A stretch of 64,000 nucleotides of DNA from Alphaproteobacteria bacterium (GTDB lineage Bacteria; Pseudomonadota; Alphaproteobacteria; Methylaequorales; Methylaequoraceae), in assembly GCA_045563015.1 (NCBI GenBank), contig JBJKUQ010000021.1:1057-65056 (forward strand), given 5' to 3'. The stretch's first letter is position 1; each line of letters opens with the position of its first letter. The position numbers were made by a program. Below, one piece after another: positions 18,001-30,000 of this stretch.

Positions 18001-21000
18001 AGATTTTTTAATATTTTCTATCATGATAAAAAGTAATTAGGTTTATATCATATAATTTTAGAATACTACAAAAAATTATTAGTAATTACGATTTGATCTG
18101 TAAGCTTTTTCAAAGTTTGATTTCACTGGAATGATAATAAAAAAAACAAAAAATCCCAGAAGTTTTATATAAAACCTCCAATACTTATTATTATTTATGA
18201 ATTTGGCTCTAAAAAAAATGATTTTGGGTGAAATTAAAAAGTGTTTAAACTGAGGCAAAACATAGAATAAATGAGACAGATCATTTGAATTATTAACCCT
18301 TTGAATATAATTGAGATATTTTTTTTTATCTTTTACATTATTTAAAACTCTGACCATTTTTTTAATTCTAAAAGGGTTTGAGACAATATTTTTTACCTTT
18401 AAAAATGGAAGTTTTTTTTCTATGATCAGAAGTATACTTTGTTCAGAAGAATGAATATCTTTATCATAATGAGGTAACAAAGAATTACACTTAAAACCAG
18501 ATTCTAAAAACTTTTGTGTAAGACCAATTTCATATAGTTTAACTAATTCAGCTTTAGACTCAACTCTGTTAATTTGGTTGAAAAATTTTTTAAAAATTTG
18601 ACTATTCAGAACATTTTCTTTTAGAAAAAGAAAATAACTTTGTATGTGAAAATCATTATTTTTTCCTGCTGATGATATACCCCAAAAATCACAATCTTTT
18701 TTTTTCATGTTAGTGATAATTTTAGACAAATTATTCAATGGACCTATGATTGAATCATTTGTCAAAACCAAGTTTTTTACTTTTTTATTTTTTAAATACT
18801 TAATACCAAGTTTCCAACTACCGAAATCTTTTTCTTTGTGTTCACTTTCAATAATATGTTCAATGAAATTAATTTTTTTTTTTTCATATAAACTGAGAAT
18901 TTTATTACTTATGAAAACGACTTTAAAAAATTTAGAATATTTTCTTAATGATTCTAATACATGAAAATCTATTTTTCCATCGGGGTCAAAGAAGGCATAC
19001 AATAAGTAGTTCATTAAAAGACCTTTTTATTTTATGTTAAATACCAGTTCTTATAATAAAATAAAAAAAGATATTAATATTAAAAAATTTTTCTCAACAT
19101 AAAAAAATTAATAAGTAATTATAATTTTTTAACTTATAATAATCATGATATTTAAAAAAATAACCGATTTAAATGATCTTTAATGAAAAAAAAAAAAATA
19201 TACGAGAACTTTATAAAAAGTAAGATCTGTGATTTAGAATCAATAAAAAAAAAATCTGCTAAATTAAAGGCTAAAGGAAAAAAAATAATACTTTGTCATG
19301 GAACATTTGATTTGTTGCATGCAGGTCATTTTAGACATTTCCAAGATTCAAAAAGTTTGGGTGATGTTCTCGTTGTATCAATAACTGCAGATAATTTTGT
19401 AAACAAAGGTCCAAACAGACCTTTGTTTAATCAATTTATAAGGGCAGAGATGATTGCCTCATTATCTTATGTTGATTACGTAGTTTTAATTGAAGATAGT
19501 TCTGCTTTACCAGCAATAAAAAATATTAAGCCTAATATTTACATAAAAGGAATTGAGTATAAAAAAAGAAAAAATGATGTCACAAAAAAAATTATTGCTG
19601 AAGAGAGGGAGGTAAGAAAAAGTGGTGGAATTTTGAAATTTACAGATAACATTACATTTTCATCATCAAACTTAATAAATACTAATTTTTTATCTTATGA
19701 TACTAAACTTTCTCAAATAATAGACATGTGTAAAAAGATGGGTTTTTTTTATTTCCAGTCTTTACTTGATAATATTAAGAAATTAAATGTCATGGTCATT
19801 GGCGATTCGATTATTGATAAATATGTTTATACCGAGACATTGGGAAAATCAGCTAAAGAGAGCATACTTTCAACATTAAAAAAGAATGAAGAAACTTTTT
19901 GTGGAGGAGCAATTGCTGCAGCTAACAATGTTTCAGATTTTGTCAATAAAGTTTATTTATTAACGAATCATGGCATTGAAAATCCAGATGACTCCCAATT
20001 CATAAAAAAAAACTTAAATCATAATGTTAAACTTTTACCTGTCGGTCTCAAGGAAAGACCTACAACCATGAAAACTAGGTATATTGATTACAGTTATATG
20101 AGAAAAATGTTTGAGGTTTATGATATGAATGACAAACCTTTAGGTAAAGCTGAGGAAGATAAAGTATTACATTTAATAAATAAAAATATTAATAAAGTAG
20201 ATTTAGTAATCTTAGCAGATTTTGGACACGGGTTTTTGAATAAAAGAATATATGATAGGATCTTATCTTCAAAAGTTTTTCTTGCTATTAACGCTCAAAC
20301 AAATAGTGCTAATAAGGGGTTCAATTTAATCACTAAATATCCTTACGCAGATTATATTTGTATTGATGAACCAGAATTTAGGTTAGCAACTCAGGAGAAA
20401 ACTATTGAATTAGAAAAATTATTAGCTAATAAAAAGAGTCTTCCTAAGAGTAAAGTTTTAATTGTTACGGCTGGGAAAAATGGTTGTTTTATTAAAAAAA
20501 ATAATAAAATATTCGAAATTCCGGCGTTTACAAAAAATGTTGTTGATACAATAGGAGCTGGGGATGCTTTCTTTGTTATATCTGCACTTTTTGCATATTT
20601 TAAAGAAGATCCTATTGTTATTGGATTGACTGGAAATATTTCAGGAGCATTGAAAGTTAATATTCATGGGCACAGTTCTAATGTAAAAAAAAACCAATTT
20701 TTAAAGTTTATTGAATCTATTATTAAATAAATCCTGATGTTTTGTCGATTATATTAGTGAGTACATTATGAAAATTCTAGTTACTGGTGGTGGAGGTTAT
20801 GTTGGTTGCCTTCTGGTGGAGAAGTTGCTTAGGGCAAAACATGAGGTTTTTGTTTTAGATCTATTCATATATGGGGAACCCAGGGAAGTTTTTAGAGAAT
20901 TTTTTAATTCCAAAATGCTTAAATCTGTCAAAGGAGACATCAGAGATATAGATTTAGTAGATAATCTTTTGAGTGAGGTTGAAGCAGTTATTCATTTAGC

Positions 21001-27000: not shown

Positions 27001-30000
27001 AATTTTTTAACATCACAAAAAAAGTCATTGTTAATTACAAAATTAGAAAAATTTTACAAAGAAATAATTAGCAGTCTTATGCAAGTTTACATTCAAGAGA
27101 AAAGTGATTTGAATAAAATTAGAAGACTTTAGTGATTTAAATTATTTTATATGATTAGTATTTATGTCGTTTAGATATAAAATAAGATTATGAATACTGA
27201 AAAAGAAAATAGAGAGCTTATACTTGATGGTACAAAGATTCAGTGGCATATGGAAAGAGTTGCAGCTTGGGAAAGAGGTGAGAGAATTGCCCCCATTACC
27301 ATAGATATGGCATTAACAAGAGCGTGTAATTATGGATGCCATTTTTGCTATGCCATGCTTCAAGAAAACGATAGATCAATAATAAATAAAAGAGTGATAG
27401 TTAATTTTTTGGATGATTGTTCAGAGATGGGTGTTAAAGCGGTAAGTTTTGTCTCTGATGGGGAAAGTACAATATCTCCGACATTTGTTGATGCAGTTCA
27501 ACATGGAAATAATTTAGGACTTTCCATGGCCGTAGGAACAAATGGTTTTGTTCTTACAAGGTCTAAATTAGAGGAAATTCTTCCGCATCTTACATATATA
27601 AGAATCAATATTTCTGCAGGAGAAAAAGAAAGATATTCGGAAATAATGGGAGTCAAAGAATCATATTTTGAAAGAGTTGTTCAAAATATTAGAGATATGG
27701 TTGATATAAAGAAAAAAAATAATCTATCTGTCACAATTGGTTTGCAAATGGTATTGATGCCAGAATATTCTGATCAAATTATTCCTTTAGCTAGCCTTGG
27801 GAAGAAACTTCAACCAGATTATCTTATTTTTAAGCATTGCAGTGATAATGAGGACGGTGACTTAGGGGTAAATTATGCAGGATATAAGAAACTCTACAAA
27901 ACATTAAAGAGAGCAGAGTCAATGTCTGACTCACATTACAAGGTTATTGTAAAGTGGTCTAAAATTGATTCAGGAGAAAATAGAACATATAAACAATGTT
28001 TTGGTGCACCTTTTATGATTCAGATTTCTGGATCAGGTTTAGTTGCACCTTGTGGAATGCTTTTTAATGAAAAGTATAAAAGATATCATATAGGTAATAT
28101 TTGTGAAAAAAGATTTAAAGATATATGGATGTCTGATCAATATTGGGAAGTTATGAATCATTTAGCATCCAACAACTTTGATGCACAGACTATGTGCGGA
28201 ACACTTTGTCTTCAACACAAAGTTAATGAAGCACTGGATAATCATATTAAGGGTTTAAAAAGATTGAAACCAATTTTGTCAAGAAAAGTGCCTCATCAAA
28301 ATTTTATTTAAAATTGAAAAATTCAAAAGAAAATATTAAATCTCCGAAAAATTTTGCTAAAGAATATTTTAGAGAGTTAGAAAAGGTAAGAAAGGAAATT
28401 GACTTCATAAAGATAAGCTTTGTGACAGATCTTCTTCAAGATCTATATAAGAATAACAAAACTCTTTATGTTTGTGGAAACGGTGGTTCGGCCGCAATTG
28501 CTAATCATTTTGCGTGTGATCATCTTAAAGGAATACGAGAAAAAACAAATATTAGACCTAAAGTACACTCTTTATCATCTAATATTGAATTAATAACAGC
28601 GATTTCAAATGATATTAAATTTGATGATATATTTACTTTTCAGCTATCAAGTCTTGCAAATAAATATGATTGTTTTTTAACAATTTCTTCATCAGGAAGT
28701 TCAAAAAACATTATTAAAGCAATTAAATGGGCAAAAAAAAATAACTTAAAGACGATAAGCCTTAACGGGTTTAATGGAGGGAAGGCATCTAAAATTAGTG
28801 ATGTGAGTATTAATGTTTCTAGTAACAACTATGGAATAATTGAGGATATTCACCAAACAATAATGCATATATTAGCCCAAAGTCTGATTAAAAAAAACAG
28901 TTCTAAAAAACCCTAAAAATTTTTTTATTGATAATAATAACTATTATCATTGACAATCAATAATGATTATCATATATGTCTAATATTAGTGATTATAATT
29001 GATAATGATTATTAAAATTAATAAAAATAGACAAAGGGGTTAATATGATTATTACTAAAAAAAATCGGTTCGTACCAAAACATACGCGTGGAGTGTCATG
29101 GTTAACATTCCTTCCTATATTTTTATTAAGTAGTTATGTATATTCTAATGATTCTATTATCGTTGCCCCTGATGTTAATATATTTGAATCGCCAGACCAG
29201 GTATTTGAATTACCTGGGTCTGGTGATTACATTCCAGTAGAAGAAATTAGAAAATATAATTTTAACAATATTAATGACATACTTAGAAATACGACTGGTG
29301 TTTATTCCAGAGAAGAAACTGGTTTAGGAATTTTCCCTAACATCAGTATTAGAGGTGTGAACACTTTAAGATCAGCACAAGTAAATATAATGGAAGACGA
29401 AGTAAACATTATGCCAGCTCCTTACTCGGCACCAGATGCTTATTATTCGCCAATTCCAGGAAAAATGAATGCTCTTGAAATTTTAAAGGGAACTAGTCAA
29501 TATAGATATGGCCCGCACTCAACTGGTGGAGCAATAAATTATGTAACAACTCCAATTGATTTTGGACAAAGATATTATGGAAGCGTTTCATATGGATCAG
29601 GAAACGATGTTTTAACCCATGATTACTTTAATTATGGTATGTCGGGCAAGTATGGTGCTATAGCACTTTTAGGTGAGATGTATTATCGTAATAGTGATGG
29701 TAGAAGAGATTTTAATATCGAGCCTCCAACAAGTACCCAGCATAGAAAAGGATATGATAGTGATGAATTAGGTGGAATAAACCATATTGCTCCGATGGTA
29801 AAAATGCTATGGCAGCTTCCTACTCAAAGAAATATAACTTTGGAACTTAAAGCTTCATATAATGATATGAATTATAATGAAGGTTATAGCGGTTTAACAA
29901 CTTCAGATTTTAATGCAAATCCGGATCAAGTCTATGTTGCATATCAACTTGATGAAATGAATTCAGAACAACAAACATATTACGCAAAATTAAGAGCCGA

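Follow-up and report, generated by a model that had tools for sequence, protein, structure and literature searches.

A widespread uncharacterised cassette, probably for nucleotide-sugar tailoring, at the edge of a surface-glycan island in an alphaproteobacterium

Introduction

The described systems closest to the gene cassette analysed here are the ADP-heptose pathway (GmhA/HldE/GmhB/HldD), the GDP-heptose pathways of Campylobacter jejuni, the desosamine enzymes DesI/DesII/DesV, the pairs AviB1/AviB2 of avilamycin and Pau11/Pau12 of paulomycin biosynthesis, and the O-antigen ('virenose') locus of Coxiella burnetii. The cassette lies at positions 19183-28916 of a 64,000-nucleotide (64-kb) stretch, hereafter the window, of contig JBJKUQ010000021.1 from an alphaproteobacterium of the Methylaequoraceae (assembly GCA_045563015.1). 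It combines genes predicted for heptose activation, sugar oxidation, thiamine-diphosphate (TPP) chemistry, amination and a radical S-adenosylmethionine (SAM) step, and we read it as directing the synthesis of a heptose that is activated with a nucleotide, extensively modified and destined for a glycan of the cell surface, whether O-antigen, capsule or flagellin glycan, an assignment in which our confidence is about even.

For each of these systems, one or more components bear directly on the cassette. Cj1427 of C. jejuni is described as a GDP-heptose C4-dehydrogenase (PMC10680097). The E1-like pairs AviB1/AviB2 and Pau11/Pau12 have been proposed to branch a 4-keto sugar by adding two carbons from pyruvate (PMC4753412); a preliminary description of the window had named AviB1/AviB2 as a precedent, which is real, though itself a proposal. 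In C. burnetii, CBU0678 has a 'reversed' HldE architecture (PMC5843353), the cbu0678 gene is essential for phase I lipopolysaccharide (LPS) (PMC5843353; PMC13552124), and its biochemical role was still called unclear in 2026, in reviews and a preprint (PMC13552124; PMC13252051), while genes of the Coxiella O-antigen region have been reported as acquired from Alphaproteobacteria. The preliminary description knew of no characterised pathway with the gene combination of the cassette, and neither the family libraries nor the literature searched contained one, nor a description of the combination, a family model, a characterised product or a homologous cluster with an assigned product.

Gene content and spread of the cassette

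The ten plus-strand open reading frames (ORFs) of the cassette, nine genes after merging of the split E1 beta, and the junctions between them were all recovered at their previously listed coordinates by an ORF check of the window. Pfam searches likewise bore out the domain content assigned to the ORFs; that at 25936 had zero Pfam or NCBIfam matches. With gene models corrected as described below, the cassette comprises the following genes:

19183-20730, plus strand: NTK, an HldC-like nucleotidyltransferase (N-terminal) joined to a PfkB sugar kinase (C-terminal); Pfam, NCBIfam and Protein Data Bank (PDB) matches
20768-21757, plus strand: SDR-B, an extended short-chain dehydrogenase (SDR); Pfam Epimerase, E value 1.8e-34
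21754-22710, plus strand: TPP-dependent E1 alpha; Pfam E1_dh, E value 3e-60
22703-23786, plus strand: E1 beta, split in the window into ORFs starting at 22703 and 23127; Pfam Transket_pyr and Transketolase_C
23786-24889, plus strand: DegT1, a pyridoxal phosphate (PLP)-dependent sugar aminotransferase; Pfam DegT, E value 2.1e-96
24876-25990, plus strand: DegT2, a second PLP-dependent sugar aminotransferase; Pfam DegT, E value 4.9e-100
25999-27132, plus strand: ORPH, a 377-aa partner of the radical-SAM enzyme; family hidden Markov model (HMM), start taken from contig comparison
27190-28311, plus strand: rSAM, a radical-SAM enzyme with a SPASM/twitch-type C-terminal domain; Pfam Radical_SAM and SPASM
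28314-28916, plus strand: SIS, a GmhA-like sedoheptulose-7-phosphate isomerase with a SIS domain; Pfam SIS_2

Judged from gene packing, the cassette is probably one operon; the DNA is AT-rich, and scans for promoters and terminators gave no usable signal (63 promoter-like sites vs 65.7 in shuffles).

The cluster extends well beyond this genome and the Pelagibacterales. The rSAM has thousands of homologues, the top 120 at 70-98% identity, and a scan of one genome per species returned 245 matches, including one in an archaeon, of which the best 80 (66-82% identity) were distributed across phyla and Archaea. The carriers include marine Alphaproteobacteria single-cell genomes, SAR116, Pelagibacter, Xanthobacteraceae, Azospirillum oleiclasticum, A. 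oryzae, Azospirillum sp. TSO35-2 and Herbaspirillum sp. CF444, as well as Myxococcota, Eremiobacterota, Chloroflexota, Elusimicrobiota, Marinimicrobia, Verrucomicrobiota and a Nitrosotalea archaeon. Nucleotide homology to the five closest relatives, at about 70%, extends from 19183 to about 28925.

Mapping of the window proteins to the ORFs of related loci (designated by L numbers) revealed that SDR-A (a first SDR, upstream of NTK), NTK, SIS, SDR-B, E1 alpha, E1 beta, DegT1, DegT2, ORPH and rSAM recur together in varying order, and loci that came with precomputed annotation agree. In the 42 loci whose sequence reached 8 kb or more to either side of the rSAM, counted from homology matches rather than gene calls, ORPH was found in 41, E1 alpha and SDR-B in 31 each, NTK and two or more DegT genes in 29 each, and SIS in 25. 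Chance cannot account for the arrangement, since the same genes surround the rSAM in dozens of loci spread over many phyla. By these comparisons, the cassette is one copy of a conserved module that moves horizontally and occurs in more than 200 bacterial and archaeal species. It is thus part of a widespread uncharacterised module rather than a unique operon, and we take it to be of a known kind, a cassette for the tailoring of nucleotide-sugars within an island of surface-glycan genes.

Predicted heptose activation, oxidation and amination

The NTK protein (515 aa) carries a CTP_transf_like domain at residues 38-129 and a PfkB domain at residues 202-463 (Pfam); rfaE domain II aligned with residues 26-165 and rfaE domain I with residues 196-471. 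This order is reversed relative to HldE, in which the kinase is N-terminal and the adenylyltransferase C-terminal, so that NTK does not have the HldE architecture, and it scored 150.6 bits against the NCBIfam HldE model (PRK11316; cut-off 521). PDB matches included 5x9q and 3glv, and the nucleotidyltransferase half was closest to HldC-type proteins. The SIS protein scored 123.4 bits against the gmhA model TIGR00441 (cut-off 209.45), and its top PDB matches were almost all phosphoheptose isomerases (best 1tk9, 3.7e-26). In addition, a phmmer search with an approximate E. coli GmhB query found GmhB-like phosphatases in 11 related loci, mostly of Myxococcota. The GmhA-like isomerase, the HldC-like and PfkB protein and these phosphatases make it reasonable that the pathway starts from a nucleotide-heptose, as the preliminary description had proposed. 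Compared with the ADP-heptose pathway, the module has a GmhA-like isomerase, a PfkB kinase and an HldC-type nucleotidyltransferase, with GmhB-like genes in those 11 loci, whereas its fusion order is reversed, its scores lie well under the equivalog cut-offs and the window has neither GmhB nor HldD.

The best PDB match of SDR-B was 6vo6 (1.1e-32). Its motif is YASSSSVYG together with YxxxK, without the Asp/Glu of the dehydratase TDE/TSE motifs, and models of nucleotide-sugar 4,6-dehydratases scored far under their cut-offs (NCBIfam). These features suggest that SDR-B is probably a nucleotide-sugar oxidoreductase acting at C4. It is not a 4,6-dehydratase, having SSSSVYG in place of TDE/TSE. The GDP-heptose pathways of C. 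jejuni resemble the cassette in their nucleotide-heptose start and in reaching a 4-keto intermediate via a non-dehydratase SDR, but they employ a separate GHMP-type kinase and guanylyltransferase followed by epimerases and C4-reductases, and have no TPP enzyme, aminotransferase pair or radical-SAM enzyme.

Both DegT proteins matched PF01041 with more than 320 bits each and retain the PLP lysine within HPLKNL (SLHPLKNL in DegT1, SVHPLKNL in DegT2). The best PDB match of DegT1 was 3uwc, an aminotransferase of C. burnetii (390 bits), followed by the C3-aminotransferases QdtB, DesV and WbpE and related enzymes; the nearest solved relatives of DegT2 in the PDB search were also sugar aminotransferases. 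Neither protein reached any NCBIfam equivalog cut-off, with PseC, for example, at about 230 bits vs 424.

Proposed product

The substrate, step order, regiochemistry and product given here are predictions from the observed gene content, conservation, co-occurrence, cofactor motifs and nearest solved relatives. In the proposed pathway, the GmhA-like isomerase would convert sedoheptulose-7-phosphate to heptose-7-phosphate, and the reversed HldE-like NTK would phosphorylate C1 and attach the nucleotide, with the 7-phosphatase supplied from elsewhere in the genome. The GalE/Cj1427-like SDR-B would then oxidise a ring hydroxyl to a ketone, most likely at C4. The E1 alpha-beta pair, which lacks E2 and E3, may decarboxylate pyruvate and place the two-carbon unit on this ketone, as has been proposed for AviB1/AviB2 and Pau11/Pau12, and the two DegT enzymes would install amino groups. 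Finally, rSAM together with ORPH could use radical chemistry to oxidise, deoxygenate or epimerise the sugar at an unactivated carbon, as do DesII, BtrN and HygY. The 'branched amino-heptose' put forward in the preliminary description is plausible as a prediction, although some loci have no aminotransferases and others no E1 pair.

Several observations weigh against this reading. Biochemistry has not assigned a product to any member of the module, and neither the identity of the nucleotide nor the regiochemistry on the sugar can be read from sequence. All cassette proteins scored far under the curated NCBIfam cut-offs and none falls in a named equivalog. The link from SDR-B to heptose oxidation passes through 6vo6, which we take to be Cj1427, the GDP-D-glycero-D-manno-heptose C4-dehydrogenase, and the rSAM is only about 15% identical to DesII, with a structural model of predicted local distance difference test (pLDDT) 68 built on a shallow alignment. 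As the preliminary description had noted for the operon, no GmhB-type phosphatase was found, here by phmmer with the approximate query across the 64-kb window. SDR-A is absent from the window and present in 5/5 of its closest relatives. Moreover, the composition of the module varies: in L008, L017 and L029 the module has no DegT genes; L043 and L055 have SIS, one DegT and NTK beside ORPH-rSAM and neither the E1 pair nor SDR-B; and in L068 (2858-12700) and L065 the ORPH-rSAM pair has no sugar genes within 10 kb. Such variants indicate that the cassette is assembled from sub-modules rather than being one rigid pathway, with separate units for the activation of the heptose, for oxidation together with TPP chemistry, for amination and for the radical step. 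Its steps need not follow one another in a single linear route.

One alternative is that the nucleotide is removed and the TPP enzyme extends the chain (C7 + C2) to a nine-carbon sugar of ulosonic type, which would then be linked to CMP and passed on to an acceptor such as flagellin. A NUDIX hydrolase gene directly following rSAM in 11 loci agrees with this idea, as does L043, where the minimal SIS-DegT-NTK set and ORPH-rSAM are followed by CTP_transf_3, the flagellin glycosyltransferase Maf, an acetyltransferase, a dioxygenase and sulfotransferases (11123-14921); Maf is also present in L053, and the island in the window has a CTP_transf_3 gene (1822-2562). Against it, CTP_transf_3 and Maf each accompany the module in 2/80 loci only, no NeuB-type synthase was seen, and L043 itself lacks the E1 pair, so that extension by E1 cannot explain that locus. 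Furthermore, the expected product of carboligation with pyruvate, by established TPP chemistry, is a methyl ketone rather than a 2-ulosonic acid. We consider this route unlikely.

Related loci carry GT1, GT2 or Maf glycosyltransferases. Maf stands beside module genes in two alphaproteobacterial loci, L043 and L053; the modified sugar may decorate flagellin in some lineages.

If the assignment to a modified surface-glycan heptose is correct, hundreds of species share a recurrent mobile module for sugar biosynthesis. The module would then offer three signatures that are at present unannotated, namely an HldE-like enzyme with its domains in reverse order, an E1 pair that lacks E2 and ends in a conserved GPF tail, and a radical-SAM enzyme with a partner family for which there is no Pfam or NCBIfam model. 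The Azospirillum and Herbaspirillum isolates that carry the module provide a cultivable route to its chemistry. For marine bacteria, a defined cassette is added to poorly understood surface-glycan islands that are thought to shape interactions with phages and grazers.

The radical-SAM enzyme and its partner protein

The CX3CX2C motif of the rSAM (C46/C50/C53) was invariant in 121/121 sequences. Its auxiliary cysteines C217, C270, C288, C336 and C340 were near-invariant and C305 was present in 117/121, forming the pattern C-x17-C ... C-x3-C. The SPASM model PF13186 matched with 31.4 bits (cut-off 21.5); with five to six cysteines, the protein does not have the seven-Cys SPASM motif for two auxiliary clusters, and its C-terminus appears to fit a twitch-like or partial SPASM domain better. 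The closest solved structure was DesII, by sequence (E value 1.6e-7) as well as by fold (E value 4e-12), followed by peptide maturases, anSME, viperin and BlsE. The score against the DesII model TIGR04426 was 46.7 bits (cut-off 450), and the best NCBIfam radical-SAM model reached 93 bits vs a cut-off of 380.

The desosamine enzymes DesI/DesII/DesV share with the cassette a radical-SAM enzyme acting on a nucleotide-sugar between two DegT-family aminotransferases. Unlike that pathway, the cassette has no 4,6-dehydratase and some variants of the module have no aminotransferases; to our knowledge, DesII has neither a SPASM/twitch domain nor an ORPH-like partner. Sugar enzymes with a twitch or SPASM domain include the dehydrogenase BtrN and the epimerases HygY and NeoN. 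The rSAM cysteine pattern, with its one or two extra conserved cysteines, may resemble theirs in a single auxiliary cluster with a possible H-atom-donor cysteine, whereas none of the three was among the listed top matches of the rSAM.

The gene between DegT2 and rSAM had been described as encoding a 398-aa orphan; it is in fact a mis-framed 377-aa member of a conserved family and a near-obligate partner of the rSAM. Orphan status, which a word-indexed search returning only 4 relatives had suggested, was overturned by exhaustive profile search and synteny. An exact-sequence lookup of the 398-aa window ORF gave no match, since that ORF is mis-framed. ORPH aligned over its full length (20% identity, E value 9e-16) with the protein that is encoded upstream of the L008 rSAM and has no annotation, a profile search of 1.84 billion cluster representatives gave about 280 family representatives at 50% clustering, and the family HMM matched in 80/89 loci. 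The family is fast-evolving (~20% identity), yet its C-terminus D-x-N-K-x-R-R-L is invariant and appears in the window protein as ...DLNKIRRL.

The AlphaFold2 model of ORPH, built on a 108-sequence alignment, had a pLDDT of 89, and Foldseek found no significant full-length fold match for it in the PDB. The best Foldseek matches, all weak, were ISCU, SufU and IscU, with CnfU also present (E values 0.02-0.3, template-modelling score 0.45-0.49 on the target). Likewise weak, 9/9 matches in a profile-versus-PDB search were NifU, IscU or SufU (best 0.0066), and NifU_N matched 3/108 family members (0.0011). These three weak, independent signals suggest that the central domain of ORPH is remotely IscU/NifU_N-like. 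Members of the family have a Cys (75%), a Glu (75%) and a His (91%) conserved in this domain, whereas the window protein and the rest of its clade have other residues at all three positions, and the family has a single conserved Cys in place of three cluster-ligating cysteines. The loss of the family's only conserved Cys in the window clade weakens a role as Fe-S scaffold, while that clade keeps the invariant R23, W35-V-P, W284, E351, D371 and R376 and the C-terminal ...NKIRRL. It is concluded that ORPH is a dedicated partner of the rSAM.

The same data bear on the possibility that ORPH and rSAM form a separable two-gene unit whose substrate is not a sugar but a protein or peptide, possibly the ORPH C-terminus itself, or in which ORPH serves as an Fe-S handling partner. 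The two genes occur together almost always while the others vary, and in the two loci free of nearby sugar genes they adjoin an ABC (ATP-binding cassette)/HlyD exporter and a phage-type integrase (L068) or a ribonucleotide reductase (L065). A fast-evolving protein with an invariant C-terminus and a remote IscU/NifU-like domain would suit such a unit, and many SPASM enzymes are peptide maturases, as reflected in the NCBIfam matches and in SkfB and SuiB among the fold matches. However, roughly three in four of the long loci, across phyla, have the pair embedded in the sugar module, the nearest solved relative of the rSAM is the nucleotide-sugar enzyme DesII, and its auxiliary cysteines number five to six and not the seven of the SPASM motif. 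The radical-SAM core is moreover preceded by 35 residues only, with no N-terminal peptide-recognition domain. A separable unit of this kind is therefore improbable in our view, and action of the pair on the sugar is preferred.

Sequence quality and integrity of the window copy

Comparison of the window with near-identical Logan metagenome contigs (L091 and L097, 99.9-100% identical) revealed three +1 insertions in the window, each in a homopolymer run. The split of E1 beta results from one extra C at 23130-23132 (CCC in the window vs CC in L091). Contig L091 corresponds to 21100-23892, differs from the window solely by that C and encodes an intact E1 beta of 360 aa; L097, spanning 23045-27627, has no frameshift at this site either. 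Two As present in the window, at ~25916 and ~25945, are missing from L097. As a result, the final ~25 codons of DegT2, a protein of 370 aa in L097, are disrupted, and the first ~21 residues of the 398-aa ORF are spurious, being the mis-framed end of DegT2. Once the extra bases are removed, ORPH starts at the TTG at 25999 and has 377 aa. The 'orphan' label and two gene models in the window are thus artefacts. In L004, a more distant relative, E1 beta is interrupted by a different frameshift, at a run of nine As (A9).

As all three insertions are single-base homopolymer additions and intact versions exist in independent contigs, they are read as probable sequencing errors. Real decay of the local copy into a pseudogenised remnant, with the module functional elsewhere, would account for three +1 indels within 3 kb and for the loss of SDR-A, which all five closest relatives carry, and an acyltransferase elsewhere in the island is also in two ORFs. 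This explanation is very unlikely given the typical sequencing-error signature, the 99.9-100% identical contigs with intact versions, and the full length and intact motifs of the other cassette genes.

The E1 alpha/beta pair

In the window the E1 pair is flanked by SDR-B and DegT, and its thiamine-diphosphate motifs are intact (GDA...ENN in E1 alpha, SPISENG in E1 beta). E1 alpha scored 266.9 bits against PDH_E1_alph_y (cut-off 393.85) and its PDB matches were E1 alpha subunits of pyruvate dehydrogenase (PDH) and branched-chain keto acid dehydrogenase (BCKDH); the two E1 beta fragments scored 101 and 134 bits against the PDH E1 beta model (cut-off 321). The earlier observation that the pair, lying between an SDR and the aminotransferases, has no E2 or E3 partner nearby holds up: none was seen beside it in the window or, among relatives, in the loci annotated with precomputed Pfam matches (flanks SDR and DegT or ORPH, gene order consistent in ~30 loci), with no E2/E3 HMM scan of all loci.

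The E1 beta of the window has a C-terminal extension ending in NPEFKGPF (23680-23786). All module-type E1 betas examined have such an extension of ~35 residues with the nearly invariant end D(V/I)P-x-x-x-F-x-G-P-F, namely those of 45 loci, that of a second pair in L008 and that of Coxiella (L090, 14862-15929). The GPF tail also occurs in rSAM-less loci (Coxiella and L098), as it does in the second pair of L008, and it may be a signature of an E2-less E1 clade. The tail was considered as a substrate of the rSAM and set aside, being equally conserved in rSAM-less loci. The second pair belongs to a second sugar set in L008 (13245-21122), with E1 alpha-beta, one DegT, two SDRs, a B12-binding radical-SAM enzyme and a GHMP kinase, which indicates that E2-less E1 pairs recur in further glycan pathways.

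Although E1 subunits of PDH and BCKDH head the family matches as well as those in the PDB, and the Coxiella homologues have been read as fatty-acid-related pyruvate dehydrogenases (PMC5423948), an ordinary pyruvate or acetoin dehydrogenase E1 lying by chance in the island is hardly credible and is effectively excluded by context, the pair being directly flanked by SDR-B and DegT or ORPH in most loci, with no E2/E3 seen adjoining it in the annotated loci, scores under the PDH equivalog cut-offs and an extension with a conserved GPF end. A role in sugar branching matches AviB1/AviB2 and Pau11/Pau12, likened here by gene context and not by sequence, in that an E1 pair free of E2/E3 lies inside a nucleotide-sugar cluster beside a keto-sugar-forming enzyme. 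Those pairs, in contrast, belong to actinomycete antibiotic pathways acting on 6-deoxyhexoses, and the known branching enzyme of Gram-negative glycans is the unrelated flavoprotein YerE.

Relation to the Coxiella O-antigen region

The DegT1 match 3uwc led to the O-antigen locus of C. burnetii, CBU_0673-CBU_0697. The 21 kb of this locus examined (CBU_0673-0687 lie outside that stretch) hold, in this order, ABC transporter genes, sulfation genes, two adjacent DegT genes, a GT2 gene, the genes of E1 alpha and beta, one for a TylCIII-like C-methyltransferase, GMD and fcl; neither ORPH nor rSAM was found there. Likeness to the cassette extends to CBU0678, which shares the reversed nucleotidyltransferase-kinase order of NTK (likened by description and not by sequence) and has as neighbours the GmhA-like CBU_0674 and the SDRs CBU_0676 and CBU_0677. 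It extends also to the aminotransferase 3uwc, to the E1 beta end ...F-G-G-P-F and to nearby sulfation genes, as in the window. Unlike the cassette, the Coxiella region adds GMD, fcl, the TylCIII-like C-methyltransferase and a GmhB-like gene, CBU_0673. A Legionellaceae metagenome-assembled genome has E1 alpha-beta and twin DegT genes with GMD-type SDRs, and neither ORPH nor rSAM. From their occurrence in Coxiella and Legionellaceae, E1 alpha-beta and two DegT genes look like a portable unit acting on a nucleotide-keto-sugar.

These likenesses supply a comparative frame for a gap in Coxiella LPS biosynthesis, namely the roles of cbu0678 and of the 'pyruvate dehydrogenase' genes of the O-antigen locus. 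A bolder proposal, which we regard as doubtful, is that the GPF-tailed E1 pair and the extremely conserved twitch-type rSAM with its IscU-like partner make an undescribed class of higher-carbon or branched (di)amino-sugars from a nucleotide-heptose, widespread on marine and soil bacteria and some archaea, and that the Coxiella sub-module makes the component that cbu0678 and its neighbours supply to virulent phase I LPS.

Genomic surroundings in the window

The cassette is at the edge of a glycan-biosynthesis island. To its left, the island contains DegT genes, a CMP-type cytidylyltransferase, a second rSAM/SPASM gene, sulfotransferases and an AT3-SGNH acyltransferase, as well as GT11, carbamoyltransferase, methyltransferase and RgpF genes. 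To its right, a TonB-dependent receptor is followed by core genes (gltBD, acnA, ccm and the ethylmalonyl-CoA pathway). The neighbouring features are as follows:

546-4603, plus strand: small sugar cluster of DegT, CTP_transf_3, a GFO/IDH/MocA oxidoreductase and rSAM/SPASM
1822-2562, plus strand: CTP_transf_3 (CMP-ulosonate-type cytidylyltransferase) within that cluster
4814-9749, minus strand: two sulfotransferases and an arylsulfotransferase-like gene
14898-17277, minus strand: carbamoyltransferase (609 aa), SxtJ-like (weak, just under the Pfam cut-off), Methyltransf_24 and RgpF-like genes
29045-31336, plus strand: TonB-dependent receptor, directly downstream of the cassette

The carbamoyltransferase-to-RgpF genes are probably glycan-decorating. 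Sulfotransferases or genes for the synthesis of 3'-phosphoadenosine-5'-phosphosulfate (PAPS) adjoin the module in L006, in L043 and in the Coxiella locus L090, which hints at sulfation of the glycan. Two overlapping minus-strand ORFs (7429-8175 and 6116-7519) align with successive segments of the Acyl_transf_3 model and together represent the AT3-SGNH acyltransferase, divided probably through another indel; the window appears indel-prone, and its other short or split ORFs need caution. A TonB-dependent receptor is unusual for Pelagibacterales. The rSAM of the 546-4603 cluster is 21% identical to that at 27190 and has relatives in L014, L043, L059 and L060.

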